A stretch of 32,000 bases of DNA from Acaryochloris thomasi RCC1774 (GCF_003231495.1 NZ_PQWO01000006.1:30001-62000); one strand, 5' to 3'. Counted from the stretch's first letter, positions 3,712-28,810 are shown. Made by a program: numbers and translations. The notes: generated from the letters alone by a model not told the origin.

Positions 3712-3722
3712 TGAATTCTTGT

Positions 3723-3744
3723 AAGCCTTTTCCAGTAAAGGCTT
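3723..3744 (+). terminator. Candidate stem-loop terminator after the esterase gene
   Basis: AAGCCTTT (3723-3730), a 6-nt loop, then AAAGGCTT (3737-3744) give a perfect 8-bp stem starting 11 nt after the stop codon. The T-tail (TTGAGCTTT) is weak. Confidence 0.35.
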
Positions 3745-4116
3745 TGAGCTTTAGCCCGAAATTCAAGAATACCTCCCTCAGAGCGTTGAGATACAGGTGG
3801 CCGATTAACCTGTATTGCTTTTCCAATCTGGCTTCTAGAGAGTCTGTGATCTGTTTTTTCAGGTGATGCAACCTGGATTGATGGAACAGAGCCGATTTTT
3901 GATAGGCCCTGTAACCCTTCTCTAGTATGGCTCCTAGAAAAGTGTACTACCTGCGGAATGTAGGATACATCACAATCCAGCCCCAGAACTGCATAACCGA
4001 CCATGTGGCCGCAGAAGCCCCTTTTATACCGACAATGCGAGAACTCGCCCGTACTTATCAAGCTTTTTCAACCTACTTTGATCAGCATATCCCCACCCTC
4101 GATCTGAGGTTATGGA

Positions 4117-10100: not shown

Positions 10101-12732
10101 TGTGAATTGCCACTAGCGACGTTGAGCAAGCCGTTTGCACATTGACGCTCGGCCCTCTGAGATTGAGCTTGTAGGAAACCCGCGTCGCCAGATAGTCCTT
10201 ATCATTAGCCACCGTCATCTGAAAGCCACCCATTGAACTCAGATTCAGCATCTGCATGGGGTCGTGATTATCCAAACGATGGCGGTTGGGATAAACATTG
10301 TTGAGCAAAAAAGTATTCATTGACGCCCCGGCATAGAGCGCAATCGAGCCGTCATAGCACCAAGGATCGTATCCTGCATCCTCTAGACTCTCCCAGGCAC
10401 ACTCTAATAAGAGGCGCTGCTGGGGATCGATTAGCTCTGCCTCCTTGGGGGTATAGCTAAAAAAGTTCGCATCGAAGGTCTCTATCTCACCCAAGATTGG
10501 ACTGGCCTTTACGTAGTCCGATCGCTGTAAAAGTTGTGGATCAACACCTGAAGCTAAGATTTCTTCGTCTGTAAAAAAAGTGATGGACTCAACGCCATCG
10601 CAAAGATTCTGCCAAAACTGCTCCTGGTTTTCTGCCCCCGGAAATCGACAGGAGAGTCCTACTACAGCAATCTCTGTGACCTGTTTCTGCCTTCGTTTTT
10701 TACCTCGTGCTTGGGCCTGCTCTAGCGCTAAATCATTCGACTGACTCTGACTGAGGTATTGAGCTAAAGCATCAATAGTGGGGTACTGAAATAGCTCCAC
10801 GACCGATAGATCGACCTGCAAACGGTTCTGAACCTGATGCAGTACCTGCACCAGCAGCAGCGATGTTCCACCCAGCTCAAAAAAGTTATCGTGGATGCCA
10901 ATTTGCGTTGGCCCTTGGTCGGCCTTCGGGCCTCGCTGCAGCACGCCTTGCCAAATCTCAGCCAACTGCCGCTCAACCTGATTGCGAGGTCTTTGCAGCT
11001 CTGAAAGATCGCCCAACAGCTCCGTGACTTTATTGATCTGAATAGTGAACGCACCGGCTTGAAACTTTGCCCTCAACTGCTGGTGCTGGATTTTACCCAC
11101 TGACGTTTTGGGAATTTCTTCAGGTGCCACTGGGATTAGATAATCGGGGCTTATTCCTAGTTCTAAGCTTAGGGTTCTGCGAATTTGCTTGAGCAAAAGT
11201 GCCAGATCTTGACCCGAGGATGACTCAGGATGAAAGAAAAGAGCCAACTGTTCAGCGCCCTCACCTGCACTGCTGACGGCACAGGCTGCGGTATAGGACA
11301 CCGCTACCCCCTTTAGGTCTTCAACGGCAGCCTCGATTTCATGGGCGTAGTGGTTGATGCCATTGATCACAATCACGTCTTTTTCGCGCCCTGTGATGGT
11401 CAAACGCCCCTGCTTTAAAAACCCCAGGTCGCCGGTTCTAAACCATCCGTCTGAGGTGAAAATTTCCCGATTCAAATCGGGCTGCTGATAATACCCCGCC
11501 GTCACCGTGAGTCCCTGTACCTGCAGCGCCCCAATCTGTCCTTCTATCACTACCTGATCTTGGTGATCCACGATTCGTACCGAGACCCCAGGGATAGGTG
11601 AACCCACCTCTACGAGAGTATCTGTACTCGGTGCAAACTGATGGGAATGGACAATCCCAGAGCAGGTCTCCGTCATACCGTAGCCCGGACTCACCGCTGT
11701 CTGAGTTAAGCTGTGGGGCTTCAGCAGCTCAAGGAACCGCTGGGTCGTTTTGCCCACCACGGCCTCCGCCCCATTGCCCATCCAGCGCATAGAGGACAAA
11801 TCCCACTGTCGCTGTTGAATTTGGTCAGCCTGGTCATTAATCAAGCCATAGGCGAAATTGGGTGCCCAGGTCGCAGTGGCCCGGAACTGCTCAATGCAGT
11901 CTAGCCATCTCAGCGGATTTTGCAGAACCCATTCATTGGCGACCTGAACCTGCTGACACCCTAGAAAGACTTCGGTGAGATGAAACATTACTAGGCTGGC
12001 CACGTGCTCTAGCGGCATCCAGTTGAGGGTAATATCTGCTGCCGATAAGCTATTCGCTGCAGCCATACCAGCAGCGCTCACCAGCAGGTTCTCAGTTGAG
12101 AGCATGACCCCTTTCGGCATACCCGTGCTGCCTGAAGTCATCAGAATTAGAGCAGGATCCTGATGATGCTCTGTGGCCCACTGTCGATCGGGTGGACCGT
12201 CGCGGAGGTTTTCAATCGCCGCAACGGCAATAGACGGAGAATGACCCATCGTAGAGACATCCCGCCTATGTTCGTCACAAAACCTTTGTATTGGTTGCTG
12301 AAGCGCCTGATTTGTCAGAACAATTGGCGCGCTGAGTAGCTGCTGAGTCTGTAGAAGCTGACTGGCTTTGCGGCTGGGGACATCATAGCTCGGAGCCACC
12401 GATAAAGGCACCGGTACGAATCCACCCAGAAAGCAGCCCCACAAAGCCTCGACAAAGGATTGATTGCGGGTCGCTTGCAGAATGATTTTGTCCTGAGGCT
12501 GGGCACCTAAGGTTCTTAGACCATGCAATACCCGCTCAGCACGCGCTAATACCTCAGCATAGGAAGACTCTAAGAGGTTGCCCTGAGCCTCTATATAGAT
12601 AAGCCCCGCAGTTGTTTGAGCCGCCTGCTCCAGTACTGCTGCTAGTGACCGGTGGGCAGATATCTCAGGAGAGATAGCGTCTCCATGGCTAATCGCCAGT
12701 CGCGGTTCATTGACGGGGGGGGTGTGGGTCAT
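4117..12732 (-). CDS. Type I PKS, loading plus module 1: FAAL-type acyl-AMP ligase, CP, KS, AT, DH, ER, KR, ACP
   Basis: An uninterrupted 2871-aa ORF. Ligase: LILMTSGSTGMPKGV, PGYGMTET, WFRTGDLG, GREKDVIVINGINHYAHEIE, PKTSVGKIQ. Carrier protein: FFELGGTSL (Ser624). KS: QTACSTSLVA (Cys869), EAHGTGT, KTNVGHL. AT: FLFTGQGSQY, GHSIGE (Ser1334), HGFH. DH: HQVNTTAIFP, LLDACCQ. ER: LIHSAAGGVGQAAVQ. KR: ITGGLGDLG, HAAGILDDG, NYAAANA. ACP: LGLDSLT (Ser2786). About 40-45 aa follow the ACP core as a C-terminal tail. Confidence 0.95.
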   Translation of the reverse strand: MTHTPPVNEPRLAISHGDAISPEISAHRSLAAVLEQAAQTTAGLIYIEAQGNLLESSYAEVLARAERVLHGLRTLGAQPQDKIILQATRNQSFVEALWGCFLGGFVPVPLSVAPSYDVPSRKASQLLQTQQLLSAPIVLTNQALQQPIQRFCDEHRRDVSTMGHSPSIAVAAIENLRDGPPDRQWATEHHQDPALILMTSGSTGMPKGVMLSTENLLVSAAGMAAANSLSAADITLNWMPLEHVASLVMFHLTEVFLGCQQVQVANEWVLQNPLRWLDCIEQFRATATWAPNFAYGLINDQADQIQQRQWDLSSMRWMGNGAEAVVGKTTQRFLELLKPHSLTQTAVSPGYGMTETCSGIVHSHQFAPSTDTLVEVGSPIPGVSVRIVDHQDQVVIEGQIGALQVQGLTVTAGYYQQPDLNREIFTSDGWFRTGDLGFLKQGRLTITGREKDVIVINGINHYAHEIEAAVEDLKGVAVSYTAACAVSSAGEGAEQLALFFHPESSSGQDLALLLKQIRRTLSLELGISPDYLIPVAPEEIPKTSVGKIQHQQLRAKFQAGAFTIQINKVTELLGDLSELQRPRNQVERQLAEIWQGVLQRGPKADQGPTQIGIHDNFFELGGTSLLLVQVLHQVQNRLQVDLSVVELFQYPTIDALAQYLSQSQSNDLALEQAQARGKKRRQKQVTEIAVVGLSCRFPGAENQEQFWQNLCDGVESITFFTDEEILASGVDPQLLQRSDYVKASPILGEIETFDANFFSYTPKEAELIDPQQRLLLECAWESLEDAGYDPWCYDGSIALYAGASMNTFLLNNVYPNRHRLDNHDPMQMLNLSSMGGFQMTVANDKDYLATRVSYKLNLRGPSVNVQTACSTSLVAIHMASQSLLNGECDMALAGGVSVHAPQKMGHLYQEGMILSPDGHCRAFDAQAQGTLFGSGAGLVVLKKLEDAIASRDNIYAVIKGSALGNDGGQKMGYLAPQAEGQTVVAAEAMAVAEVAPASIGYVEAHGTGTELGDPIEISALTRAFSTQQRQFCAIGSVKTNVGHLNIASGIVGFIKTTLAVQRQKIPPSLHFETPNPRIDFEHSPFFVNTKLRDWPERSAPRRAGINSLGIGGSNVHAILEEVPVTQRSPTIERPVHLFTLSAKTEQALKELAQRSVDDFRNHPELSLGDVCFTRNVGRAHFEWRVALIVDQSETLATSSLVDLTTKLEDWLSNPQASNLYQGKVSPKNTSAKIAFLFTGQGSQYLDMGRDLYETQPVFRQALEDCNTILRPLLERPLLDLLYPETPLEVQEEETPKSLLDQTAYTQPALFALEYALSQLWQSWGIQPTAVMGHSIGEYVAACVAGVFSLEDALKLVAARGRLMQALPANGGMVSVVADEATVNQFLDHERSEVAITEGRPLAIAAVNGPESLVLSGERTAVEQVAEKLTAQGIKTTCLNVSHGFHSPLMEPVLAEFEQIAQQITYHPPQIELISNLTGKRIGDAISTPIYWCRHIQQPVQFAASMKTLTQSGHNIYLECGPKPTLLGMGRALLEKPHNSDLNSDALYLPSLCFQKNDWETILHSLGQLYIRGVAINWENVDQGFEHYRVSLPTYPFQRQRYWLDPPPAQALLRTTARHPLLGQKISTPLQQILYQAQISPEQSSYLQDHQVNTTAIFPGAAFLEIALAAGVESPNLDLPLTVQTVAMEQALPLIGTVNVQTILQQTETGLTFEIFSQNSRADAAWQRHCTGSISQTTPLSEPVIDLEDLRRQFPQERAVSSHYQACQTRSLNYGPQFQAITKLWIKPSAALAKVQLPTALSASNYCLHPVLLDACCQAIFAALPESDTSTLLPIGLDSLTLHCPASDCLWSHVQLHSVAETVTADLMLYRPDGQRVATVTGLTAKRTNLQAVLGMEPQAWQNWLYQVDWREQSGQLEPTVMEPGQWLIFADQGGVGQRLAHQLAQRQQHVILVSPDPQESGSVHQLDPQDPQALRHLLETLQSLPLTLQGVIHLWSLDAVNAEKDDAAISATIQQNCGSALHLIQRLLQAPSRLWLVTRGTQRVNDERLDCSALSQAPLWGLTKTLMLEHPEFPAAVIDLAPQPTVDEHQALWSEILISEPEVQVALRGDQRFVARLAPVTVESAHRQQKQTLQASVSSQLVIPERGTLENLRWQPQTRRRPQAGEVEIRVRATGLNFRDVLNVLDLYPGNPGPLGLECAGDIIAIGAGVSGHQIGDSVVAIATPAFSQHATTSIFAPKPTSLSYAEAATIPVAFMTAHYALNHLAKIGPNDRILIHSAAGGVGQAAVQIAQQAGAEIFATASEGKWEWLRSQGIQHIFNSRTLDFAEEIQAITGKEGVTITLNSLTGKFIPHSLSITSDHFLEIGKQGIWKPKNVCKNWPHLTYSIVDLMQTMEKEPEQVQSLIKAVMEQFQAGELKPLPYKSFSAAKVVNAFRYMQQAKHIGKVVVEQAATPVVPKQSKNPLAQLATGSVLITGGLGDLGLLVAQWLADQGARHLILVGRRSPSPKAQTQILQLEKSGVQVQVMQADISQRNDVTRLLDPYHRATASKVNSTNVAPKTHVNNSHPQATPPLRGIIHAAGILDDGMLQTLNWEEFESVLKAKVNGAWTLHQLTADLDLDFFVLFSSAASLLGSAGQANYAAANAALDTLAQARQSAGLPALSINWGPWEQLGLANHINAGFQGMDRIEPQIGLAVLDHLLRQSWAQAGVLPIHQSQWTVPTGMSDFWSELAVKQPADWLEALRGACDRKSLLFQYLRSEVARLLGRDASALNDPETGFTDLGLDSLTTVEFRNRLQTALSCSLSSTILYDYPTLPLLTEYLMHQIFPADSSVKPASTNLYSTSLNKLSEADAETLLLLQLEQLDSNFRKN
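4243..4485 (-). other. PKS1 domain: ACP
   Basis: The sequence is GFTDLGLDSLTTVEFRNRL, with Ser2786 encoded at 4375-4377. Confidence 0.85.
4693..5331 (-). other. PKS1 domain: ketoreductase (KR) catalytic subdomain, B-type (LDD)
   Basis: It has VLITGGLGDLG (Rossmann), HAAGILDDG (LDD motif) and SSAASLLGSAGQANYAAANA (catalytic Tyr2640). It carries a loop about 25 aa longer than usual before HAAG. Confidence 0.85.
5389..6315 (-). other. PKS1 domain: enoylreductase (ER)
   Basis: It has GEVEIRVRATGLNFRDV, the NADPH motif LIHSAAGGVGQAAVQIAQ, and ends at KHIGKVVV. Confidence 0.85.
7063..7887 (-). other. PKS1 domain: dehydratase (DH)
   Basis: It has HPLLGQ, the catalytic His in LQDHQVNTTAIFPGA (His1649 at 7786-7788), YGPQFQ and LLDACCQ. 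Confidence 0.8.
8143..9042 (-). other. PKS1 domain: acyltransferase (AT), probably malonyl-specific
   Basis: It has FLFTGQGSQY, GHSIGE (Ser1334 at 8731-8733) and HGFH in place of the malonyl HAFH or methylmalonyl YASH signatures. Confidence 0.85.
9370..10671 (-). other. PKS1 domain: ketosynthase (KS)
   Basis: It runs from IAVVGLSCRFPGA to GGSNVHAILEE. The active-site Cys869 is encoded at 10126-10128, and both His motifs are present. Confidence 0.9.
10765..11001 (-). other. PKS1 domain: loading carrier protein (PCP-like GGxS motif)
   Basis: The sequence is IHDNFFELGGTSLLLVQV, with the predicted phosphopantetheine Ser624 encoded at 10861-10863. Confidence 0.8.
11053..12645 (-). other. PKS1 domain: ANL-superfamily fatty acyl-AMP ligase (FAAL-like) loading domain
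   Basis: Residues about 30-560. The core motifs are of the acyl-ligase/FAAL type (YGMTE, GRxKDxIxxxGxNxYxxxIE, PKTSxGKIQ), not the NRPS amino-acid type (NxYGPTE, NGKxDR). Boundaries are approximate. Confidence 0.75.
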
Positions 12733-13492: not shown

Positions 13493-14662
13493 ATGGAGAC
13501 GATAAAACTACGGGTATCTGACGAAACATTGCGGGATGGTGTCCAGCAAGTTGGCTTGTTCCTCGAGGACGATGCTAAGCGGGTATTGGCTCATCTCATT
13601 GCTCAGACTGGCGTACACCAGATTGCCTTGATGCCTGCAGTTCATGAAAGTGAGGCCGTTCTGGTGCGTGGGTTGGCTGCGGAAGGGCTCCACCGTCAGG
13701 TGGTGGCTTCAACCATGATGGACCGTCAATATATTGATCAGGCAAAAGCCTGTGGTGTTCGGCAAATTATTCTCTTCCATGCTGTTTCCGATCGGCTGCT
13801 GTGTTTGCGGGAACCCAATGTTCAAGCTCAGCCCATAGGTGCAGAGGCAGCTTGCTCTAAGGCCTTAACTGAAAGAGTGCGCTCTCGGATGCTTGAGAAA
13901 GTTGTCGAAAATCTACAGTATGCGACCAGTATCGGCCTAAAAATCAGCTTTGCGGCTGAAGATGCAAGTCGAGCTGACTTTGATTTTTTAGTTGAATGTA
14001 TAAATGTCTTTCAGCCTTATATTGACTGCTTTTTTCTTTGCGATACCGTGGGTGTCCTCACGCCAGAAAAAACCTATATCTGGGTTCAGGATCTGCTGCA
14101 GTGTACCCATCAGCCTTTTTTGTCGGTGCATTTTCATAACGATATGGGGCTAGCGCTAGAGAACACCATTCAGGCCGTGTATGCCGGAGCCATGGGTATT
14201 TCAGGTACCTTTAGCGGTGTCGGAGAACGAGCTGGCAATGTGGCTTTAGAGCAGGTGCTCCACGGATTGAGGGCTAGGTTTGGTTGGGAGGTAGCAGGAA
14301 TTGACTATGAGGCTTTGCCTGAGGTGGTCGATTATCTGACGCAGAAAGGGATTCGAGCAAACCCGCCCTATTCTCGGCAGGCGCGCCAGTTTGAGACGGG
14401 GATTCACGTCAATTCTCTGATTCGCGATCGCAACAGCTACGCTGTGTTCCCCCATGCTGAGCCTGATATCTGGTTTGGCAGATGTAGCGGTGCCAGTAAC
14501 TTCCGTTATTTGTTTGAGACCCATCTGCAGCAATCCTTGACCCAAGCACAGTACGAGCAACTGCGGTCAGCGATTAAGGCCCTCTCTACTGAGAGAAAGC
14601 GGTCTTTCTCGACCGCCGAAGTTTTAGAGTTGCTAGACCAGGGAATTCTTAGAGTCTTTTAG
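13493..14662 (+). CDS. DRE-TIM metallolyase of the 2-isopropylmalate / homocitrate / citramalate synthase family (LeuA/NifV/CimA-like, short form)
   Basis: It has TLRDGVQQ (RDGxQ metal/substrate motif), AAEDASRAD, LCDTVGVLTP, HFHNDMGLALENTIQAVYAGA (HxH metal ligands), GVGERAGNVALEQV and ETGIHVNS. At 389 aa it lacks a LeuA-type C-terminal regulatory domain. It ends 92 bp upstream of PKS2 on the same strand. Confidence 0.8.
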   Translation: METIKLRVSDETLRDGVQQVGLFLEDDAKRVLAHLIAQTGVHQIALMPAVHESEAVLVRGLAAEGLHRQVVASTMMDRQYIDQAKACGVRQIILFHAVSDRLLCLREPNVQAQPIGAEAACSKALTERVRSRMLEKVVENLQYATSIGLKISFAAEDASRADFDFLVECINVFQPYIDCFFLCDTVGVLTPEKTYIWVQDLLQCTHQPFLSVHFHNDMGLALENTIQAVYAGAMGISGTFSGVGERAGNVALEQVLHGLRARFGWEVAGIDYEALPEVVDYLTQKGIRANPPYSRQARQFETGIHVNSLIRDRNSYAVFPHAEPDIWFGRCSGASNFRYLFETHLQQSLTQAQYEQLRSAIKALSTERKRSFSTAEVLELLDQGILRVF

Positions 14663-14754: not shown

Positions 14755-17700
14755 ATGACCCTGGACTCCATTGCGATTGTTGGCATCGGTTGTAAATTTC
14801 CGGGGGCGGAAGGGCCGCAAGCATTTTGGAAGCTTCTGCGCGATGGGGTAGATGCGATTACCGACATCCCTAACTCTCGGTGGGACGCTGATCGGTTCTA
14901 TGATCCAGACCCCGGCGCGCCTAATAAAGCGAATACCCGCTGGGGAGGCTTCTTGGAGGGCATTGATCGCTTCGACCCTCAGTTTTTTGGCATTGCCCCC
15001 CGCGAAGTCGCCAGTATGGATCCGCAGCAGCGACTGCTGCTGGAGGTCACCTGGGAAGCCCTGGAAGATGCGGGGCAAATTCCCGAACATCTCCGAGGAT
15101 CTAGGACCGGGGTATTCATTGGGGTCGGGACTCACGATTACTCCATCATGATGTGGCAGGATCCGGTGAATGATCCCTACGCCACGACGGGGACGGGCAA
15201 CTGTATTGCGGCCAATCGAATTTCCTATGTTTACGACCTAAAGGGCCCTAGTTTAGCGATTGATACGGCCTGCTCATCGTCTCTGGTAGCAGTGCATTTG
15301 GCCTGTCAGAGCATCTGGACGGGAGAGTCGAGTCAGGCGCTGGCGGGGGGCGTGAATGTCCTGCTGTTGCCCACCGTGACGGCGGGATTCTCAAAGGGGG
15401 GCTTTATGGCCCCTGATGGTCGCTGTAAGAGCTTTGATGCTAAGGCCGATGGCTACGTTCGCAGTGAAGGGGCGGGGATTGTGCTTCTGAAGCCGCTGGC
15501 CCAAGCGCAGGCAGATGGTGACCCGGTCTATGCGGTGATCAAGGGAAGTGCCGTCAATCAGGATGGATTTAGTAACGGGATGGCGGCTCCAAATCCCAAG
15601 GCGCAGGCAGTGGTGTTGCGTCAGGCATACCAGCAGGCAGGCGTGTCGCCGGGGCAGGTGCAGTACGTCGAGGCCCACGGCACGGGCACTAAGATTGGTG
15701 ACCCGGTGGAAATGGAGGCTCTGGGCGAGGTGCTGGTTGAGGGACGATCGGCAGGGGATGAATGTGCGATCGCATCGGTCAAAACCAACATTGGCCATGC
15801 CGAAACGGCAGCGGGCATCGCCGGATTAATTAAAGCTGCACTCTGTATAAAAGAGCGGAAACTCCCGGCAAACCTACATTTTGAGACCCCCAACCCCGCC
15901 ATCGACTTTGAGCATCTTCCCTTCTATGTACAAAAAACGCTCACCCCTTGGCCCACAACAGCACCGGCCCTAGCGGGCGTCAATTCCTTTGGCTTTGGTG
16001 GCACTAATGCCCATGTCGTCGTCGCGGAGGCTCCCGGAAAAACAGCAGCAGCACCGGCTGCATTACAAGCCCATCACGTTTTTACCTGCTCGGCAAAAAA
16101 TAAAGCGGCCCTCAACGATCTGGCGCAACACTATCTAAACTTTTTAGCACAGCAGTCTGATCTTGATCTCAATGATTTGTGTGGAACTGCCAATCTACGA
16201 CGGACAAGCTTCTCGCATCGATTTGCGATCGCAGCCGACTCACTCACGCAGCTGCAAGACTTCCTCTCGGATTTTCTGGCTGGCGAAGATCATTCCAATA
16301 TTCATAAAAGCATCGCTAGTCAGGATTTGACGCTCGCTTTCCTGTTCACAGGCCAAGGATCTCAGTACGAAGGCATGGGGCAAGCGCTTTATGAGACGCA
16401 GCCCGTCTTCCGAGATGTGCTGGATCGGTGCGACAAAGTCCTACGCTCTGAGCTAGAGATTCCACTACTCGACGTTCTCTATCCATCCCAGAAAAGCGAG
16501 GATTCTCCTTTAAACCAAACGGCTTATACTCAGCCCGCGCTGTTTGCTATTGAGTACGCGCTTTACCAGCTTTGGCAATCTTGGGGCATCCATCCCGCTG
16601 CCGTTACCGGGCACAGCGTTGGTGAATACGTCGCCGCCTGCGTTGCGGGGGTCTTCAGTCTTGAAGATGGTTTGAGGCTGATTGCCGCGCGAGGACGGTT
16701 GATGCAGGTATTGCCGAGCGGCGGTGCCATGGTGGCGGTGGCGGCGAGTGAATCACAGATTAAGGATCTTCTGCCTGCTGCTGTGACGATTGCTGCTATC
16801 AATGGGCCGCAAAGCTTGGTGTTGTCTGGGGAGGGAGATGCGATCGCAACTCTAACCCAAGCCCTGATCGATGCAGGCTTCAAAACCGACGTACTTCAGG
16901 TCTCCCACGCTTTTCACTCAGCGCTGATGGAGCCGATGCTAGATGAATTTAAACAGATTGCCCAGCAAGTCACCTATCACACGCCCCAAATTCCGCTGGT
17001 GTCGAATCTAACGGGTGCGTTGGTCACCGACGAAATCGCCACGCCTGACTACTGGTGTCGCCACGTTCGAGAGCCAGTCCGGTTCCAAGCCGGTATGGAA
17101 ACTCTGTACCAGTTAGGATATCGCACCTTTGTAGAAATGGGGCCAAAGCCAATCCTCTGCGGCATGGGTCATAATTGCCTGCCTCGGCCCGAAAATAATT
17201 GGCTACCGAGCTTGAGGCTCGGACACCCCGCTCAGCTTTGGCGCAGTGTGGGACAGCTTTATACCCTGGGTGCCTCAGTTGATTGGTCCCAGCTTTATCC
17301 CAGCTATCAATATGTTCATCTGCCGACCTACCCCTTTCAGCGGCAGCGTTTTTGGTGGGACGTTGCGGAGCTGCCGGGGATGCGATTACCGAAGGTAGGC
17401 CAGGGGCCATCGCAACCTTGGTCTCTCAATGGTCATACTTCCAAGGCTCATCCCCTATTGGGCGCAAGGCTGCATTTAGCCGGTTCTGCTGAGATCAGAT
17501 TTCAGGCTCTAATCAGTGCTGAGAGTCCAGCCTATCTGAGCGATCATTGTTTGCTGGATCAAGTTGTCCTCCCTGCTACTGCTTATATTGAGATGGCGTT
17601 GGCTGCGGCACGGCAGCTCTATGATCACGATGCGCTCATCCTGGAATCATTCACCATTGAGCAACCTTTATTACTGACTGAGGCTTGCACGCTGCAGTGC

Positions 17701-20700
17701 GTCTTTATCCCTGATCAATGTGCGTATCAGCTAGAGATTTTCAGTCTAGGTATTGGGGAAGAAACATCCCCCGTGCTTCGTCATGCAACGGGCCGTATTC
17801 ATAGCAAGAAAAGCAGCACGGCTACCCAAGATATTGAAGTATTACAGGCACTACCGCTTTCCCCGATTGAAGTTGGAGACCATTATCATGATCTCCAAAA
17901 ACGGGGACTGAATTATGGTCCTTGTTTTCGGGGTATTCAAAAACTGTGGGCAGAAGAGGGACAGGCCCTAAGCCAGATTGCTTTACCGGAAGGCGTGACA
18001 GATGAAGATCGTTACCAAATTCACCCTGCTTTACTAGATGCCTGCTTGCAGACGCTGGGAGCGGTGTTTACGGAAAGCGAAACGTACTTGCCTGTGGGTT
18101 GCGATCGCATCCATCTCTATCATCCCCCCGGTAAAGACATCTGGTGCCACGCCCTGCTTCAACCCGGTGAGGACTCTGCCGCGTTCCGAAAGGCTAACCT
18201 ACAGTTGATGGACGATGCAGGCGCGATCTTCGCGGAACTGATTGACTTCAAGCTCCAGGCCGTCAGCCCTGCTGTATTACGACGATTGGTGAAGCAGGCA
18301 GACCCGCTCGACCACTGGCTCTATGAACCGATTTGGCAACTGCAGCCCCTCGCAGAAGTTACCGAACAGTCTGAGCCTCATCAATGGTTGATTTTTGCAG
18401 ATCGACAGGGATATGCAAAGCAAATTGCCCATCACCTAGAGGAAAAAGGCGATCTCTGTACTTTTGTTTATCTCTCTTCTAGTGCATCAATATCGCCAGC
18501 TGGCTATACCGTTGATCCTGCTCAGCCCCAAGACTTTCTGCAACTCTGGCAAGAGTTACTCCAAAAAGAGCAGCGTCCTGACCAAATTCTCCATCTATGG
18601 AGTTTAGATAGTGGTGATTTAGAGCAGGTTGCAGATGACCTTCAACAGAATCAGCTGCAAAGCTGTGGATCTGTTTTGCATTGGGTGCAGGCGATCGCAT
18701 CTGAGACCTCGCCACCTAAGCTATGGCTGATGACTGCTGGGGCACAGGCGATCACTGACCAACTGGAAGCCCCCCAACAGGCACCGTTATGGGGGCTAGG
18801 TCGGGTGATTCGTCTAGAGCAGTCAGGGATGAACTGTGTCTGTGTGGACTTGGATGCTGAGCCGTCGGAGGAGACTTTAGAGGCTCTCGTTCAAAATTTG
18901 CGACAGCCCGACGATGAGAATCAGGTGGCGTTTCGAGGTTGCGATCGCTACGGTGCCCGCCTCGTCCCCAGAACCTCCAAGACTGTCTCCCAGCGTCCAG
19001 ACGGAGCCTTTCGACTGGGGCTGACAGAATATGGAGTTTTAGATCATCTCTCTTTACTGCCTGCGGAGCGTCATCCCTTGGCATCCTCTGATGTTGAAAT
19101 TGAGGTGTGTGCTTCTGGAATTAACTTCCGCGATGTCCTCAACGCCCTCGGAATGCTGAAGCCCACCCTTGAAAAAATGGGTTTTGCCCAAGCAACAGAG
19201 GTTCCTTTCGGTGGAGAGTGTTCTGGAAAAGTTATCGCAGTGGGTTCTGAAGTTGAAAATCTGAAGATTGGTGATCAGGTCATTGCGGCTCAGGCCGTTG
19301 GCAGCTTGGGGCAATTCGTCACCGTCGATGCCCGGTTTGTGATCCCCAAACCAGAAAAAATTAGCTTTGCCGAAGCCGCGACCCTTCCCACCACCTTTTT
19401 GACCGCTTACTACGGTCTTTGTCACTTGGCTGGGATTAAGAAGGGAGAGCGCATCCTCATTCACTCTGCAGCAGGCGGCGTGGGTCAAGCTGCCGTTCAA
19501 CTTGCTCAGCAAGTCGGGGCCGAAATCTACGCCACCGCCAGTCCCGGCAAATGGCAGTTCCTCAAAGAGACGGGCATTCAGCATGTCATGAACTCCCGCA
19601 CCCTAGCATTTGCCGATCAGCTCATGGAACTCACCAACGGGAAGGGGGTTGATATTGTCTTCAATAGCCTCAACGGAGACTTTATTCCCAAAAGTATAGA
19701 GACCCTGGCCCCCCAAGGCCGCTTTGTTGAAATTGGCAAAATCGGCATTTGGAATGCTGAGCAAGTGACCCAACTCCGCTCAGATGCAAGCTATTATCCC
19801 TTTGATTTACTCGAAGTCTCTCAGCAAGATCCGGTCCTCATCGCCACGATGCTGACCCAGTTGCTGAGTCAGTTTGAAGCGGGTTCTCTCACACCACTCC
19901 CACACAAAGTTTTCCCCATCGAAAAAGCAGCCGATGCCTTCCGCTACATGGCCCAGGCTAAACATATCGGTAAAGTCGTTGTCACCCTGGATGAACACAA
20001 TCCGCCTGGTATCCGAGCAGATGGAGCCTACTTGATTACAGGCGGGTTGGGCGGGTTGGGGCTAGAAGTGGCTCACTGGCTCGTCGAGCAGGGGGCAAAG
20101 CATTTGGTGTTGGTCAGTCGGAGATCGCCTGCCCCCAAAGCACAGGAGCAGATTCAAGCCATAGAGAAAACCGGAGTGCAGGTCCAAGTGGTGCAAGCTG
20201 ATATCTCGCGGCGAGAAGACGTTACTCGATTGCTAGCTCCGTATGATTATGCGGCTGCACCTGCGCCATTTGATAGCTCAAACGTTGCACTGGCCCCCCT
20301 AGCCCCCCAATCCTGGGGGAAAAGAAGACAAAAGCTCGATATCTCCCGAGAATTAAAAAATCGAGAGAGTCGAGACGTTACGAAGCAGCCTCAATCAGAT
20401 ATCCATCAAGAGACATCCCCATCTTCAGGTACTCTCCCCCCAGAATTGGGGGGCTGGGGGGGGCAACGCAGCACCAAACAGTCCAAGTCCAATCGTTCCC
20501 TAGACAATAAACCACTCCTAAAAGGAATCTTCCACGCCGCAGGTACCCTAGATGACGGAATGCTCCAAACCCTAAACTGGGAGCAGTTCTCCACTGTAGC
20601 AGCCCCAAAAATCATGGGAACCTGGCATCTCCATGAGTTTACTCAAAATCTAGAACTCGATCACTTCGTTTGCTTCTCTTCAATGACATCGCTGCTTGGC

Positions 20701-22683
20701 TCCCCCGGCCAGGGCAACTACGCCGCCGCCAACGCTTTTATGGATGCCTTGATGTACCTGCGCCACGCCCAGGGACTTCCTGGGCTCAGCATCAACTGGG
20801 GACCGTGGGGCAAGGCCGGTATGGCCGCGCAGCTTTCCGCCATTGATCAGCAGCGCATGACCGATCAGGGTATTGAAGCGATTCTGCCGGACCAAGGGCT
20901 ACAGATTTTAGAGGGGCTGTTAACCCAGACATCCGCTCAGATCGGCGTGCTACCGATTGATTGGTCGAAGTTTATTCCTCAATTGCCAGAGGCGGCGGCG
21001 GTACCGTTTTTAGAGCAAGTTCGCCCGACGCTGGAACAGAAAGGACCATCGGAGCTGATGCAGCAGTTGATGGGGGCTGAGAGTTGCGATCGCATCTCCA
21101 CCATCCAAAACCACCTTCGCAGCCAGTTAGCTAAAGTCCTTGGCTACAGCTCCATGGACCTGATCGAACCCCAAGATAATTTTGCTGACCTCGGCATGGA
21201 CTCCCTGATGGCGGTCGAGTTCAACAACCGACTCCAGGCCAGCTTCAACCGCACCATTTCTCAAACGACCCTCTTTGATTACCCCACGGTCGAGTCCCTC
21301 GCAGACTATCTCAATCAAGATCTGTTGCTTGGGGATAATGTTCAGGCTCTGTCCGAAACGTCGCTCCCGACAGAATCTTCTGCTTTGACAGATACTGCAA
21401 AGGCTACGTCCGATATCATTCAGTCCTCAAAACCGGTCAAGACTGAGCCAGAACCCTCCCCCCATCTAGAAAATATCCCCCTACCTGATATCCCCGATCA
21501 GTTCTACCAGTTTCATAAATCCCCGGAATATCTCAATCTTCGGCAAGATTTAGATCGCGTTGAAGAACTAGGGAACCCGTTTTTTGAGGTCCATGAAGGG
21601 ACGGCCCGCGACAAAACCCAAATTGGAGGCCAAGAGCTGCTCAGCTATGCCAGCTATAACTACCTGGGCCTCTCAGGCGATCCCAGAATTATCGAAGCCA
21701 CAGAAGCCGCCATTCGCCAGTATGGAACATCAGTGTCAGCCAGCCGAGTCGTCGCTGGAGAACGCCCCATCCATCGGCAGCTAGAGCAAGAGATTGCTAA
21801 TTTTTTAGGCACTGGAGACAGCATTGTCTTTGTCGGGGGACACGCCACCAACGTCACCACCATCGGGCATTTATTCCGTGAAAAAGATCTGATTCTTTGT
21901 GATGCCCTGAGTCACAATAGCATCCGGGAGGGCTGTCAGCTTTCAGGGGCAACGGTGATTGAATTTCCGCACAACGATCGCAACGCTCTAGAGCAGCTTT
22001 TGCAAGACCATCGACAGTCCTATGAAAAGGTACTGATCGCCGTTGAGGGCGTCTACAGTACCGATGGCGACTTGGCTCCGTTACCCGAGATGGTGACCCT
22101 CAAGCAGAAGTTCAAAACCTTTTTGCTCGTGGATGAGGCTCACTCCATCGGCACCTTGGGCGCAACCGGACGCGGAGTCGGTGAACACTTCGGCATTGCA
22201 GCTGAAGATGTCGATCTATGGATGGGGACACTCAGTAAATCTTTCGCGAGCTGTGGCGGCTATATTGCAGGTCGCAAAGAGCTGGTGGAATATCTCAAGT
22301 ACACCTCTCCGGGCTTTGTGTTCAGTGTCGGCATATCCCCGGCGAATACAGCGGCAGCATTAAAAGCGATTCAGGTGTTAAAAGAGGAGCCCGAGCGGGT
22401 TGTGCAGCTCCGAGAGCGGTCGGCTCTATTTTTGCAGCTTGCTCAAGAGATGAAGTTGAATACAGGGGCAAGCCATGATTCTCCTGTGATTCCGATTATT
22501 GTAGGTGAACCCTATAGGGCGGTTCAGCTATCGCGGTTGCTCCTCCAATGCGGAATTAACGCACAACCGATGGTGTTCCCATCGGTGCCTTATAATTCTG
22601 CGCGGGTCAGGTTCTTTGTCACTTCTCTACACTCTGACGAGCAGATTGAAGCGACTGTGGTTGCGATCGCAAGTAGCCTCTAG
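14755..22683 (+). CDS. Type I PKS, module 2 with fused off-loading domain: KS, AT, DH, ER, KR, ACP, alpha-oxoamine synthase (AOS, PLP-dependent)
   Basis: An uninterrupted 2642-aa ORF with an in-frame TAG 9 nt upstream of the ATG. KS: DTACSSSLVA (Cys173), EAHGTGT, KTNIGHA. AT: FLFTGQGSQY, GHSVGE (Ser621), HAFH. DH: LSDHCLLDQVVLP, LLDACLQ. ER: LIHSAAGGVGQAAVQLAQ. KR: ITGGLGGLG, HAAGTLDDG, NYAAANA. ACP: LGMDSLM (Ser2150). AOS: YNYLGL, GGHATN, LVDEAHS, GTLSKSF (Lys2495). Confidence 0.95.
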   Translation: MTLDSIAIVGIGCKFPGAEGPQAFWKLLRDGVDAITDIPNSRWDADRFYDPDPGAPNKANTRWGGFLEGIDRFDPQFFGIAPREVASMDPQQRLLLEVTWEALEDAGQIPEHLRGSRTGVFIGVGTHDYSIMMWQDPVNDPYATTGTGNCIAANRISYVYDLKGPSLAIDTACSSSLVAVHLACQSIWTGESSQALAGGVNVLLLPTVTAGFSKGGFMAPDGRCKSFDAKADGYVRSEGAGIVLLKPLAQAQADGDPVYAVIKGSAVNQDGFSNGMAAPNPKAQAVVLRQAYQQAGVSPGQVQYVEAHGTGTKIGDPVEMEALGEVLVEGRSAGDECAIASVKTNIGHAETAAGIAGLIKAALCIKERKLPANLHFETPNPAIDFEHLPFYVQKTLTPWPTTAPALAGVNSFGFGGTNAHVVVAEAPGKTAAAPAALQAHHVFTCSAKNKAALNDLAQHYLNFLAQQSDLDLNDLCGTANLRRTSFSHRFAIAADSLTQLQDFLSDFLAGEDHSNIHKSIASQDLTLAFLFTGQGSQYEGMGQALYETQPVFRDVLDRCDKVLRSELEIPLLDVLYPSQKSEDSPLNQTAYTQPALFAIEYALYQLWQSWGIHPAAVTGHSVGEYVAACVAGVFSLEDGLRLIAARGRLMQVLPSGGAMVAVAASESQIKDLLPAAVTIAAINGPQSLVLSGEGDAIATLTQALIDAGFKTDVLQVSHAFHSALMEPMLDEFKQIAQQVTYHTPQIPLVSNLTGALVTDEIATPDYWCRHVREPVRFQAGMETLYQLGYRTFVEMGPKPILCGMGHNCLPRPENNWLPSLRLGHPAQLWRSVGQLYTLGASVDWSQLYPSYQYVHLPTYPFQRQRFWWDVAELPGMRLPKVGQGPSQPWSLNGHTSKAHPLLGARLHLAGSAEIRFQALISAESPAYLSDHCLLDQVVLPATAYIEMALAAARQLYDHDALILESFTIEQPLLLTEACTLQCVFIPDQCAYQLEIFSLGIGEETSPVLRHATGRIHSKKSSTATQDIEVLQALPLSPIEVGDHYHDLQKRGLNYGPCFRGIQKLWAEEGQALSQIALPEGVTDEDRYQIHPALLDACLQTLGAVFTESETYLPVGCDRIHLYHPPGKDIWCHALLQPGEDSAAFRKANLQLMDDAGAIFAELIDFKLQAVSPAVLRRLVKQADPLDHWLYEPIWQLQPLAEVTEQSEPHQWLIFADRQGYAKQIAHHLEEKGDLCTFVYLSSSASISPAGYTVDPAQPQDFLQLWQELLQKEQRPDQILHLWSLDSGDLEQVADDLQQNQLQSCGSVLHWVQAIASETSPPKLWLMTAGAQAITDQLEAPQQAPLWGLGRVIRLEQSGMNCVCVDLDAEPSEETLEALVQNLRQPDDENQVAFRGCDRYGARLVPRTSKTVSQRPDGAFRLGLTEYGVLDHLSLLPAERHPLASSDVEIEVCASGINFRDVLNALGMLKPTLEKMGFAQATEVPFGGECSGKVIAVGSEVENLKIGDQVIAAQAVGSLGQFVTVDARFVIPKPEKISFAEAATLPTTFLTAYYGLCHLAGIKKGERILIHSAAGGVGQAAVQLAQQVGAEIYATASPGKWQFLKETGIQHVMNSRTLAFADQLMELTNGKGVDIVFNSLNGDFIPKSIETLAPQGRFVEIGKIGIWNAEQVTQLRSDASYYPFDLLEVSQQDPVLIATMLTQLLSQFEAGSLTPLPHKVFPIEKAADAFRYMAQAKHIGKVVVTLDEHNPPGIRADGAYLITGGLGGLGLEVAHWLVEQGAKHLVLVSRRSPAPKAQEQIQAIEKTGVQVQVVQADISRREDVTRLLAPYDYAAAPAPFDSSNVALAPLAPQSWGKRRQKLDISRELKNRESRDVTKQPQSDIHQETSPSSGTLPPELGGWGGQRSTKQSKSNRSLDNKPLLKGIFHAAGTLDDGMLQTLNWEQFSTVAAPKIMGTWHLHEFTQNLELDHFVCFSSMTSLLGSPGQGNYAAANAFMDALMYLRHAQGLPGLSINWGPWGKAGMAAQLSAIDQQRMTDQGIEAILPDQGLQILEGLLTQTSAQIGVLPIDWSKFIPQLPEAAAVPFLEQVRPTLEQKGPSELMQQLMGAESCDRISTIQNHLRSQLAKVLGYSSMDLIEPQDNFADLGMDSLMAVEFNNRLQASFNRTISQTTLFDYPTVESLADYLNQDLLLGDNVQALSETSLPTESSALTDTAKATSDIIQSSKPVKTEPEPSPHLENIPLPDIPDQFYQFHKSPEYLNLRQDLDRVEELGNPFFEVHEGTARDKTQIGGQELLSYASYNYLGLSGDPRIIEATEAAIRQYGTSVSASRVVAGERPIHRQLEQEIANFLGTGDSIVFVGGHATNVTTIGHLFREKDLILCDALSHNSIREGCQLSGATVIEFPHNDRNALEQLLQDHRQSYEKVLIAVEGVYSTDGDLAPLPEMVTLKQKFKTFLLVDEAHSIGTLGATGRGVGEHFGIAAEDVDLWMGTLSKSFASCGGYIAGRKELVEYLKYTSPGFVFSVGISPANTAAALKAIQVLKEEPERVVQLRERSALFLQLAQEMKLNTGASHDSPVIPIIVGEPYRAVQLSRLLLQCGINAQPMVFPSVPYNSARVRFFVTSLHSDEQIEATVVAIASSL
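14770..16032 (+). other. PKS2 domain: ketosynthase (KS)
   Basis: It starts at residue 6 (IAIVGIGCKFPGA). Cys173 is encoded at 15271-15273 and the domain ends at GGTNAHVVVAE. Confidence 0.9.
16330..17169 (+). other. PKS2 domain: acyltransferase (AT), malonyl-type HAFH motif
   Basis: It has FLFTGQGSQY, GHSVGE (Ser621 at 16615-16617) and VSHAFHS. Confidence 0.85.
17443..18270 (+). other. PKS2 domain: dehydratase (DH)
   Basis: It has HPLLGARL, His931 at 17545-17547 in LSDHCLLDQVVLPATAY, YGPCFRG and LLDACLQ. Confidence 0.8.
19033..19989 (+). other. PKS2 domain: enoylreductase (ER)
   Basis: It has DVEIEVCASGINFRDV, LIHSAAGGVGQAAVQLAQ, and ends at KHIGKVVVTL. Confidence 0.85.
20023..20829 (+). 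other. PKS2 domain: ketoreductase (KR), B-type, interrupted by a long hydrophilic insertion
   Basis: It has YLITGGLGGLG, HAAGTLDDG and GNYAAANA (Tyr1989 at 20719-20721). There are 100 residues between the LL of DVTRLL and HAAG, against 38 in PKS1 and about 15-20 in the typical KRs I recall. Confidence 0.8.
20283..20468. repeat. G/C-run inverted-repeat element (MITE-like or palindromic) lying in frame inside the PKS2 KR domain
   Basis: The left core AGCCCCCCAATCCTGGGGG (20301-20319) compares with the reverse complement of 20436-20455, AGCCCCCCAATTCTGGGGGG; they differ at one position and by one extra terminal G. Complementarity continues imperfectly through C6-C8 runs and CGTTG out to 20283 and 20468. 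The arms flank 116 bp of A-rich sequence. Confidence 0.6.
21103..21318 (+). other. PKS2 domain: ACP
   Basis: The sequence is NFADLGMDSLMAVEFNNRL, with Ser2150 encoded at 21202-21204. Confidence 0.85.
21499..22680 (+). other. PKS2 domain: alpha-oxoamine synthase (class II aminotransferase fold; BioF/KBL/SPT/CqsA family)
   Basis: It has SYASYNYLGLSGDP, VGGHATNVTTIG, DALSHNSIREG, LLVDEAHSIG and MGTLSKSFASCGGY, with the PLP Lys2495 encoded at 22237-22239. A linker of about 60 aa rich in Ser/Thr/Pro/Glu joins it to the ACP. Confidence 0.85.
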
Positions 22684-22752: not shown

Positions 22753-23109
22753 TCAAGTCCCAATATCGACCCAAACACTCCCGTCTTCAATGCGGGTCGG
22801 GAAAACCGCCAGCGCCGTCTCCGACTTTATTTTGCCGAACAGCTTACCCACCCCCGGCGGGAAAGGACACCAGTCCTGCACGGCCCCTGTCTTTAGGTCG
22901 AACACGCTGCGATGGAAAGGGCAAACGATAGTGCCATCAACAACCTTGCCCTTCGACATCGGTGCCTTGATGTGGGGACAAGAATTCTCCACAGCATAGA
23001 TTTCGCCCTGATGATTCAGGAGCACAACCTTTTTCTGGCTGATCTTAACGACCTGTCTCGCTCCTTCTTGAGCGAGTTCATTCTGCGATACGGCTTTTTC
23101 CCAGCTCAT
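22753..23109 (-). CDS. Small Rieske [2Fe-2S] domain protein (ferredoxin/NirD-like, 118 aa)
   Basis: It has CPH, 16 residues, then CPFH (CPHIKAPMSKGKVVDGTIVCPFH), which is the Rieske cluster-binding signature. A GGAG Shine-Dalgarno sequence lies a few nt upstream of the ATG at 23109. Confidence 0.85.
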   Translation of the reverse strand: MSWEKAVSQNELAQEGARQVVKISQKKVVLLNHQGEIYAVENSCPHIKAPMSKGKVVDGTIVCPFHRSVFDLKTGAVQDWCPFPPGVGKLFGKIKSETALAVFPTRIEDGSVWVDIGT

Positions 23110-27907: not shown

Positions 27908-28810
27908 CTAACCGGCCAACTCAGAACTCAAGTGCTGATCCTGGCGAAGAAACGCCAGCAGCTCACGATTAACGATCCGAGGGGCTTCTTGCTGGATCCA
28001 GTGGCCGCATTCCGGCACGAACTTGAGCCGGAACGGCGCTTGAATCAGGCGCTCAAATCCCGTCGCAAAGTTAGGGCTCAACACCGTATCATCTTCACCC
28101 CACAGCACTAAAGTCGGGATATTGATCGGCAACAGCGATCGATCTCGCTTCAGCAACGATTCTGGGGCTAGCAATTGCCGGTAGTGATTGATGGCCGAAG
28201 ACAGGGCACCCGTCTTCTCTAAAGCGGCCTGATAAATCTTCAAGGTCTCACTCGAAAAAGGCGTTTTTCGGATTGCCTGCTTTTGGAACCAATTTTGCAA
28301 AAACTGCTGCAGGTTAACCTTAATCAACCATTCCGGCAACCCCGGCACCTGAAAGGCCAGCATGTACCAGCTTCTTCTGAGCTGATCCAAGTTGCTTGAC
28401 AGCTCCCGAAACAGCTTTTGGGGATGCGGCGTATTCAAGAGCACCAATCGTTTTAGATGCTGCGGAAACTTTTCGGCCAGGTTCCAAGCAATCATGCCGC
28501 CGCAATCGTGGCCGACAACGTGAGCACACTGATAGCCCAAATTTTGAATCAGACCTACAATATCTTGGCTGAGGGTATCGATATCGTAGCCATTCTCTGG
28601 CTTATCTGAGTCGTTATATCCCCTCAGATCTGGGACCACCACCTTAAAGTGACGAGCTAGGGCCGGAAGCTGATAGCGCCACGAGTACCAGAACTCAGGA
28701 AAACCGTGGAGTAAAATAACAAGATCCCCCTCACCTTGGGTGACGTAGTGCAACCGGATCTTATTGGTTTGGATAAATTGATGTTGCCAGCAATCACGAG
28801 ATTGGAACAT
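27908..28810 (-). CDS. Alpha/beta hydrolase, epoxide-hydrolase / haloalkane-dehalogenase-like subfamily
   Basis: It has LLHGFPEFWYSWRYQ (HGxP oxyanion motif plus WYSWR), the Asp nucleophile elbow VVGHDCGG, and a C-terminal GHW histidine motif (CGHWIQQE). Confidence 0.8.
   Translation of the reverse strand: MFQSRDCWQHQFIQTNKIRLHYVTQGEGDLVILLHGFPEFWYSWRYQLPALARHFKVVVPDLRGYNDSDKPENGYDIDTLSQDIVGLIQNLGYQCAHVVGHDCGGMIAWNLAEKFPQHLKRLVLLNTPHPQKLFRELSSNLDQLRRSWYMLAFQVPGLPEWLIKVNLQQFLQNWFQKQAIRKTPFSSETLKIYQAALEKTGALSSAINHYRQLLAPESLLKRDRSLLPINIPTLVLWGEDDTVLSPNFATGFERLIQAPFRLKFVPECGHWIQQEAPRIVNRELLAFLRQDQHLSSELAG

Follow-up and report, generated by a model that had tools for sequence, protein, structure and literature searches.

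A reducing polyketide synthase ending in a putative α-oxoamine synthase release domain in Acaryochloris thomasi, and the LeuA-like gene that accompanies its cluster

A 32 000-nucleotide stretch of the genome of Acaryochloris thomasi RCC1774 (GCF_003231495.1, NZ_PQWO01000006.1:30001-62000), referred to below as the window, was analysed around an open reading frame (ORF), PKS2, that encodes a type I polyketide synthase (PKS). PKS2 is probably a fully reducing module ending in a functional α-oxoamine synthase (AOS) domain that depends on pyridoxal 5′-phosphate (PLP); it would receive its chain from a second synthase, PKS1, primed by a fatty acyl-AMP ligase (FAAL)-type adenylation domain, and release it as an α-aminoketone. 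The order of the domains, the intact catalytic residues, the AOS fold, the lack of any other release domain and the conservation of the fusion were all established directly.

PKS2 was divided into the following parts by Pfam matches and motifs (positions in the window; residue numbers are those of PKS2).

14755..22683, + strand: PKS2, 2,642-aa ORF with the order KS-AT-DH-ER-KR-ACP-linker-AOS
14767-15885, + strand: ketosynthase (KS), residues 5-377; Cys-His-His
16339-17172, + strand: acyltransferase (AT), residues 529-806; GHSVG and HAFH, malonyl type
17449-18279, + strand: dehydratase (DH), residues 899-1175; His...Pro motif
19087-19983, + strand: enoyl reductase (ER), residues 1445-1743; GGVG
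20032-20811, + strand: ketoreductase (KR), residues about 1760-2019; LDD and YAAAN, B-type
21115..21312, + strand: acyl carrier protein (ACP), residues 2121-2186, Pfam PP-binding; GMDS, phosphopantetheine site Ser2150 at 21202-21204
21313..21498, + strand: ACP-AOS linker, residues 2187-2248, low-complexity, 62 aa, 44% Ser/Thr/Pro/Glu
21499..22680, + strand: AOS domain, residues 2249-2642 (394 aa), followed by the stop codon at 22681-22683

All motifs of a type I PKS with a fully reducing module are present (KS Cys-His-His, AT GHSxG, DH His, the NADPH sites of ER and KR, ACP Ser). The original prediction for this DNA had recognized the AOS domain by five motifs, and translation of the ORF places these at residues 2301-2306 (YNYLGL), 2361-2366 (GGHATN), 2386-2390 (SHNSI), 2458-2464 (LVDEAHS) and 2491-2497 (GTLSKSF). 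The lysine that it named, Lys2495, is encoded by AAA at 22237-22239, and its carrier serine was found as the Ser2150 of GMDS. Its linker of about 60 aa, rich in Ser, Thr, Pro and Glu, agrees in length and composition with the one measured here; in relatives the linker is 53-80 aa long and unconserved in sequence, even among those with AOS domains 91-93% identical. The DH motifs depart from the canonical HxxxGxxxxP, reading HxxxDxxxxP in PKS2 and HxxxTxxxxP in PKS1, with the catalytic His and Pro kept.

The C-terminal domain was compared with other PLP enzymes by sequence, profile and fold. Residues 2298-2638 match Pfam PF00155 (Aminotran_1_2) over profile positions 6-361 of 361 (E = 4e-46). 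A sequence search of the PDB returned AOS-family enzymes in 54 of 54 matches, led by ThAOS (E = 1e-69), SmSPT (6e-68) and the large subunits of human and plant serine palmitoyltransferase (SPT; 4e-67), and followed by KBL, BioF, ALAS, cysteate acyl-ACP transferase and CqsA, the last at E = 7e-26 and thus far weaker than SPT or KBL. Against NCBIfam, the 11 best matches were AOS-type models or uncharacterized relatives with E values from 1e-107 (bioF) to 6e-37, and non-AOS PLP enzymes surfaced only at about 5e-4. Matches of this strength to the AOS family are not explicable by chance. The equivalog cut-offs were missed for bioF (TIGR00858, 360 against 426.45 bits), SPT (NF047600, 320.6 against 640; NF047599, 295.3 against 500; NF047603, 219.3 against 670), KBL (303.8 against 460), ALAS (246.4 against 338.55) and the CqsA/LqsA type (NF005526, 184.2 against 428 bits). 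The domain stands in a PKS context, not a biotin one, and is 29% identical to E. coli BioF.

An AlphaFold2 model of the domain was built on ten members of its clade (pLDDT 80, pTM 0.78). This model superposes on ThAOS, SmSPT and KBL with TM scores of 0.86-0.87, and each of the top 50 Foldseek matches to the predicted fold was an AOS enzyme (TM 0.81-0.87). A neighbour-joining tree without support values, in which ThAOS, SmSPT, E. coli BioF and Kbl served as references and ALAS, CqsA, SxtA, RedL, Fum8 and SgaB were left out, placed the carrier-fused AOS domains in one clade outside SmSPT, with sub-clades that track architecture. Within this clade the domains share 57-67% identity, against 29-37% with SmSPT, ThAOS, Kbl and BioF. 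Judged by its sequence, the C-terminal domain of PKS2 is a complete member of the AOS family within a distinct carrier-fused clade, as the family assignment of the original prediction had it. An ordinary transaminase or another PLP class was ruled out because sequence, profile and fold match AOS enzymes only; the PDB search, the tree and Foldseek all group the domain with AOS enzymes instead of ordinary transaminases.

The residues predicted to bind the cofactor and the substrates lie at the following positions.

21736..21744, + strand: Ser2328-Ala2329-Ser2330, substrate-selectivity loop; Ser2330 is at the ThAOS Val79 position
21913..21915, + strand: His2387, predicted to stack on PLP and to anchor the substrate carboxylate; aligns with SmSPT His138 (role: PMC10196870)
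22132..22143, + strand: Asp2460-Glu-Ala-His2463 (DEAH), Asp predicted to contact PLP N1 and His PLP O3′; aligns with SmSPT Asp210, Ala212 and His213 (roles: PMC10196870)
22237..22239, + strand: Lys2495 in GTLSKS, predicted PLP Schiff-base lysine; aligns with SmSPT Lys244, E. coli BioF Lys236 and Kbl Lys244
22609..22611, + strand: Arg2619, predicted to bind the carboxylate and stabilize the quinonoid; aligns with an Arg of SmSPT, ThAOS, BioF and Kbl (roles: PMC11906848, PMC3870968)

These positions were read from a joint alignment of the AOS domain with E. coli BioF, Kbl, ThAOS and SmSPT (the latter two partial and transcribed from HMMER alignments), which recovers the published equivalence of Kbl Val79 and BioF Ser76. 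In register in this alignment are His2387, Ser2435, Asp2460, Ala2462, His2463, Thr2492, Ser2494, Lys2495, Ser2524 and Arg2619; the roles of the aligned residues in PLP stacking, at N1, O3′ and the phosphate, in the Schiff base and at the substrate carboxylate have been described (PMC10196870, PMC11906848, PMC3870968). A check for displacement of the lysine or of the Asp and His contacts to PLP found none displaced.

The selectivity loop of homologues reaches the active site of the partner subunit. Experiments have shown the ThAOS Val79 position to determine selectivity: KBL has Val there, ALAS has Thr, S. paucimobilis SPT and E. coli AONS have Ser, and Alb29 has Leu; the V79S variant of ThAOS accepts Ser, Ala, Gly and 2-aminobutyrate (PMC11906848). 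In PKS2 this position is Ser2330, which sits, invariant across the clade, in the loop GTSVSASR, equals the position of SpSPT Ser102 and SmSPT Ser81, and is neither the Val nor the Thr of the glycine-specific KBL and ALAS. Ser2330 speaks against an enzyme restricted to glycine and for Ser or Ala as the substrate; the two are not separable by it because E. coli AONS also has Ser there. In SmSPT it is chiefly the phosphate of PLP and water molecules that recognize the hydroxyl group of serine (PMC10196870). We agree with the original prediction that the amino acid cannot be read by eye; Ser2330 narrows the choice and goes no further. PKS-fused and FAAL-ACP-fused domains have identical selectivity-loop residues, and the ACP-fused class differs at Ser2328 only (Cys), which suggests that one common, generally available amino acid would serve the whole clade.

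The chain is expected to come from the synthase encoded on the opposite strand, which is separated from PKS2 by a LeuA-like gene.

4117..12732, − strand: PKS1, adenylation (FAAL-type)-ACP-KS-AT-DH-ER-KR-ACP (Pfam), divergent from PKS2; probable priming module
13493..14662, + strand: LeuA-like gene, HMGL-like, DRE-TIM, 389 aa (Pfam); 92 nt upstream of PKS2 and divergent from PKS1

In PKS1 as in PKS2, the motifs of KS (Cys-His-His), AT (malonyl type), DH (His...Pro), ER and KR (B-type) are intact, so that the chain carried by Ser2150 should be saturated. Pfam detected neither a thioesterase nor a reductase nor a condensation domain in the two synthases. The AOS domain, directly after the last ACP, is the sole release-competent domain in cis in either synthase, which upholds the proposal of the original prediction that it is the only chain-release device; by homology, the domain would perform both the condensation and the release. 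The FAAL-PKS, a KS-AT-DH... protein and a KR-ACP-AOS protein are co-linear in Chroococcus sp. FPU101 (locus L011), an order that speaks for two modules in line, with the adenylation domain as the primer. In loci L015 and L100, a PKS1-type protein precedes another PKS gene, which is KS-led and truncated by the end of the locus.

The following sequence of steps is proposed. A fatty acid would be activated and loaded by the adenylation-ACP region of PKS1, after which PKS1 and PKS2 would each add one malonyl unit and reduce it fully, so that Ser2150 would end up carrying a saturated acyl chain. The AOS domain would be a dimer, as the PKS is, and would bind a small L-amino acid as a PLP external aldimine (the internal aldimine being at Lys2495) and deprotonate it. 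The flexible linker would bring the acyl-S-ACP up in cis, and the quinonoid of the amino acid and PLP would attack the thioester. Loss of CO2 would give a free long-chain α-aminoketone, that is, a 3-keto-sphingoid-type base with serine or its 1-deoxy analogue with alanine, so that carbon–nitrogen incorporation and chain release would be a single step. SDR genes directly flank several members of the clade (loci L007, L020, L031, L032, L034, L035 and L069), a position that would fit 3-keto reduction of the aminoketone to an amino alcohol. The activity, the hand-over from PKS1 to PKS2, the chain length and the amino acid are the parts of this model that we infer.

The fusion itself is widely conserved. 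A HMMER search over 1.84 billion representative proteins gave 5,031 matches at E ≤ 1e-30. Most of the 150 closest representatives (50% identity clusters) are 1,000-2,860 aa long with the AOS domain at the extreme C-terminus, and most carry it after PKS, FAAL-ACP or ACP modules; several phyla are represented. In a phmmer census of these 150, which undercounts diverged domains, at least 69 have an upstream KS, 22 more are PKS fragments, 20 run from adenylation to AOS without KS, eight are ACP-AOS only and 31 AOS only; a full DH-ER-KR loop occurs in at least ten. Proteins from Blastopirellula marina (Planctomycetes) and from a metagenome-assembled genome (MAG) of the Magnetococcales have exactly the order KS-AT-DH-ER-KR-ACP-AOS. 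A metagenome scan found at least 578 relatives of the AOS domain, the best 80 loci comprising three full PKS-AOS proteins (65-71% identity), about 45 FAAL-ACP-AOS proteins (55-60%) and a remainder that is ACP-AOS or truncated. Among the relatives examined, a carrier protein in cis is the constant trait of the clade. The PKS-AOS fusion is kept at full length in L003, L006 and L016-L018; it is also fused in a Pleurocapsa locus (L005), where it is cut by the contig end. The Thermosynechococcaceae MAGs L003 and L006 have the same pair of LeuA-like gene and PKS-AOS gene, with AOS domains 90-93% identical. A PKS ending in an AOS domain is not rare; it is the dominant architecture of the clade, and the class has been catalogued since 2013.

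Other arrangements of the domain were encountered among the relatives. The PKS-AOS of L007 (4558-11213; Leptolyngbyaceae, a low-coverage MAG) is spread over four overlapping ORFs, probably through frameshift errors; it has no AT by Pfam and stands in the order P450, PKS-AOS, SDR. In the complete genome of Leptolyngbya sp. IPPAS B-1204 (L014), the AOS is a separate 391-aa gene (19262-20437, − strand) that overlaps the end of the PKS gene (20323 onwards, − strand) by about 115 nt, the result of a frameshift or of a genuine break within the linker. Stand-alone ACP-AOS genes of about 550 aa, 58-62% identical to the AOS of PKS2, occur in Xenococcaceae, Okeania, Hyella and Pleurocapsa (L001 10001-11671; L022-L030, L036, L038); those of L001 and L002 are without PKS neighbours. 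They are probably of the same type as the 571-aa second AOS of Moorea producens (PMC8895605). The commonest architecture of the clade in metagenomes is the FAAL-ACP-AOS tridomain (L033, L037 and L040-L094; about 45 loci among the best 80). A characterized FAAL-ACP-AOS or PKS-SPT fusion was not found in the open-access literature, nor was a characterized member of the fully reducing KS-AT-DH-ER-KR-ACP-AOS sub-type. The 2,624-aa protein P0343, from a Logan contig, carries its AOS in mid-protein (725-1068), preceded by an AMP-binding domain and followed by a second AMP-binding domain, a PP-binding domain and a class-III aminotransferase (1782-2173), and has two different PLP domains on one polypeptide.

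Several observations weigh against the proposed assembly line. The AOS domain lies under every NCBIfam equivalog cut-off, that of SPT included. Two of its residues, Tyr2301 and His2363, differ from all four bacterial references, so the substrate or the chemistry could deviate. No ketoreductase gene that would process the product was found in the window by tblastn. PKS2 starts directly at its KS (MTLDSIAIVG) without an N-terminal docking region, as do its counterparts in L003, L006 and L016, so that the hand-over from PKS1 to PKS2 is not secured. Single-module PKS-AOS genes stand without a neighbouring FAAL-PKS in L016-L018, an arrangement that would suit iterative operation. The model does not account for the co-conserved LeuA-like gene.

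Tyr2301 (SYNYLG) replaces an Asn found in all four bacterial references and is shared with human SPTLC2, and His2363 (GGHATN) replaces a Phe found in every reference compared, SPTLC2 included; together with Ser2328, the two are clade-specific relative to stand-alone bacterial AOS enzymes. Such replacements would suit a domain that is inactive and structural, a transaminase or a bifunctional PLP enzyme, with release effected elsewhere, for example by a trans-acting esterase (2716-3711). We regard this as very improbable. Although the window does encode that HSL-type esterase and another α/β-hydrolase, the Abhydrolase_1 protein at 27908-28810, neither is a thioesterase by family and the relatives examined showed no such hydrolase next to the cluster, so that release by either is unlikely. 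All catalytic residues are kept, and the Tyr is present in SPTLC2, a subunit of an active SPT. Tyr2301 and His2363 are moreover invariant in a very large clade, which points to purifying selection on a working site.

The missing docking region and the single-module genes of L016-L018 bear on the connection of the two synthases. PKS1 and PKS2 might be separate lines, with PKS2 and its AOS domain working iteratively from a malonyl or acetyl primer, like SgaA. The LeuA-like enzyme would then take up the product of PKS1, for instance as acyl donor in a condensation of the alkylmalate type, or PKS1 itself would be primed by an acid made by the LeuA-like gene and those that accompany it. PfSgaA is iterative (PMC12134224). 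PKS1 has no release domain of its own, and the LeuA-like gene is divergently paired with a FAAL-PKS in the window and in L013, L015, L100 and L101, two of which (L013 and L101) have no AOS nearby. The separation is nevertheless rather unlikely: co-linear with a FAAL-PKS and behind it lies an AOS-terminated module in L011 and a KS-led PKS gene in L015 and L100, and the tail of about 60 aa with which PKS1 extends beyond its ACP could be a docking element. To our knowledge, characterized LeuA-family enzymes use acetyl-CoA and not long acyl-ACPs, which also counts against it.

The LeuA-like protein is nearest to NifV and homocitrate synthase (nifV, 199 bits against a cut-off of 463 in NCBIfam; PDB homocitrate synthase, 2e-32), and it reads LRDGVQ where its best structural match, a homocitrate synthase, has LREGEQ. 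Assignment of its substrate from sequence failed, these best matches lying far under the cut-offs. It belongs to a large cyanobacterial family (60-68% identity), and all five homologues with recovered context stand in a PKS setting. As in the window, the gene is divergent from a FAAL-PKS in four of the five (L013, Elainella; L015, Thermocoleostomius; L100; L101), and in the remaining one (L014, Leptolyngbya) it lies near a PKS-AOS. A fused LeuD-LeuC-type gene of the homoaconitase/IPM-isomerase family (LeuDC-like) is found at four of these five loci and a LeuB-like dehydrogenase gene, under the LeuB cut-off, at two. PKS, AOS, LeuB-like and LeuDC-like genes follow in a row on one strand in L014, and a LeuB-like gene lies 40 nt after the PKS-AOS gene in L017. 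The new finding here is that the LeuA-like gene accompanies the FAAL-PKS cluster in five further genomes of cyanobacteria, where LeuDC- and LeuB-like genes are often present as well. No precedent was found for a PKS cluster paired with such a cassette. Two LeuA-like homologues of 673 aa from Symploca (P0492, P0493) are fused to a TauD/CsiD-type Fe/2-oxoglutarate dioxygenase domain. A thiamine diphosphate (ThDP) enzyme upstream of the PKS-AOS in L016 was considered as a branched-chain-type member of the cassette and rejected, as it scores over housekeeping acetolactate synthase cut-offs.

The cassette raises the question of the amino acid. The AOS domain might condense the chain with a non-proteinogenic amino acid derived from 2-oxoacid homologation. 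Together with LeuDC- and LeuB-like partners, of its own or housekeeping, the LeuA-like enzyme would yield, for example, 2-oxobutyrate or 2-oxoadipate, and transamination would turn these into 2-aminobutyrate, 2-aminoadipate or another homo-amino acid; the product would then lack a sphingoid-like head group. The position of the LeuA-like gene shortly upstream of PKS2 on the same strand speaks for such a route, as do the gene orders of L014 and L017, the acceptance of 2-aminobutyrate by ThAOS as well as by its V79S variant (PMC11906848) and the acceptance of homoserine by SmSPT (PMC10196870). We consider it distinctly unlikely. No LeuA-, LeuDC- or LeuB-like gene is present at any of about 70 FAAL-ACP-AOS or ACP-AOS loci, yet the FAAL-ACP-AOS relatives have the same loop as PKS2 and the ACP-AOS relatives differ from it only by the Cys at Ser2328; in L013 and L101 the cassette stands beside a FAAL-PKS with no AOS within 10 kb. 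A cassette devoted to a special AOS amino acid is less likely because of these AOS-free loci, the cassette-free loci and the invariant AOS loop. The window, searched by tblastn, has the LeuA-like gene only, with no aconitase, IsoDH, SDR, P450 or MT gene, and no dedicated aminotransferase was seen. The cassette may rather serve to make a starter acid or to process what PKS1 produces. Somewhat less remote, and put forward tentatively, is the broader idea that a conserved cyanobacterial cluster (FAAL-PKS, LeuA-like and PKS-AOS genes, often with LeuDC- and LeuB-like genes) couples 2-oxoacid homologation to the PKS-AOS line and makes an undescribed class of amino lipids with long chains; sphingoid-type bases of cyanobacteria, for which a genetic basis is missing, could come from such a cluster, or it could make a base with a non-canonical head group or starter.

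Urate-catabolism genes (OHCU decarboxylase, transthyretin-like HIU hydrolase) lie near the PKS-AOS in L017 (14047-14550) and near the FAAL-PKS in L101 (313-1177), a hint that both parts of the cluster used to adjoin each other in that lineage. Within the window, a 118-aa Rieske-type [2Fe-2S] ferredoxin gene (22753-23109, − strand) is convergent with the 3′ end of PKS2 at a distance of 70 nt, and a 117-aa ORF without a family match (3708-4061, − strand) lies directly downstream of PKS1; for neither was a link to the cluster seen in relatives. The 760-bp divergent promoter region contains no riboswitch or other RNA at Rfam gathering thresholds.

RedL and SxtA are characterized examples of carrier-fused AOS proteins. 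RedL, a prodiginine-type A-ACP-KS-AT-ACP-AOS protein, has no reducing domains and uses glycine on the way to a pyrrole. The class to which PKS2 belongs was surveyed by Milano et al. in 2013 (PMC3870968), who collected Aminotran_1_2 domains next to carrier proteins (CPs) and found this PLP family mainly in PKS clusters; their examples include A-CP-KS-AT-AOS and CP-CP-AOS in Streptomyces griseoviridis, KR-CP-AOS in S. albus J1074, A-CP-AOS in Microscilla, Blastopirellula and Synechococcus PCC 7002, and CP-AOS in Anabaena circinalis. PKS2, with ACP 2121-2186 and AOS 2249-2642 in one ORF, has the Aminotran_1_2 domain next to a CP that defines this class. It shares with that class the AOS directly after a carrier at a PKS-type C-terminus, the conserved catalytic residues and SmSPT as the nearest structural template, and differs in its full DH-ER-KR loop, its FAAL-primed partner module and its LeuA-like gene.

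The nearest functional analogues are PfSgaAB and the AasR/AcpR/SPT trio. PfSgaAB of Pseudomonas fluorescens MYb115 consists of the iterative type I PKS SgaA and the AOS SgaB, which has serine palmitoyltransferase activity, and gives sphinganines; homologous clusters are widespread (PMC12134224). As there, a reducing type I PKS would build the chain here and an AOS-family enzyme add the amino acid to give a long-chain base. PfSgaAB differs in having a separate AOS and a PKS of one iterative module, where the Acaryochloris cluster has its AOS in cis and a FAAL-primed module besides, with serine as a putative substrate. In the AasR/AcpR/SPT system of Rhodobacteria an adenylating enzyme loads a dedicated ACP and SPT prefers acyl-ACP over acyl-CoA (PMC9386255). 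The logic would be the same, and the FAAL-ACP-AOS relatives look like a single-chain version of it, but it comprises three separate proteins without PKS extension and an SPT of the canonical clade, whereas the AOS of PKS2 falls far under the SPT cut-offs. Stand-alone ThAOS (7POA), SmSPT (Sphingobacterium multivorum, 3A2B/8GUH), KBL, ALAS and BioF share the fold (TM 0.83-0.87) and all catalytic residues at 29-37% identity; unlike PKS2 they use acyl-CoA and have no fused carrier, and Tyr2301, Ser2328 and His2363 are specific to the clade of PKS2. ACP-AOS (‘SerT’) proteins of the TamD/PigH type belong to the tambjamine and prodigiosin pathways (PMC4698589) and act on a pyrrolyl-β-ketoacyl chain that leads to a bipyrrole, in contrast to the saturated long acyl chain expected for PKS2.

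A PKS that ends in an AOS domain will not surprise a specialist, and as a genome-mining lead the cluster is of moderate interest; the pairing with LeuA-, LeuDC- and LeuB-like genes deserves experiment. The ACP-AOS didomain is a compact release module that would form a carbon–carbon and a carbon–nitrogen bond and could be useful in PKS engineering. Sphingolipids have been reported from only two cyanobacteria, their biosynthetic gene is not known and tests of additional cyanobacterial AOS homologues have been called for (PMC8895605). The AOS clade described here (PKS-, FAAL-ACP- and ACP-fused, with at least 578 metagenome matches) is the obvious set of candidates for cyanobacterial sphingoid-type bases. 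If the AOS domain works as proposed, it would turn fatty acids into free long-chain α-aminoketones and so provide an entry to sphingoid-type bases in cyanobacteria.

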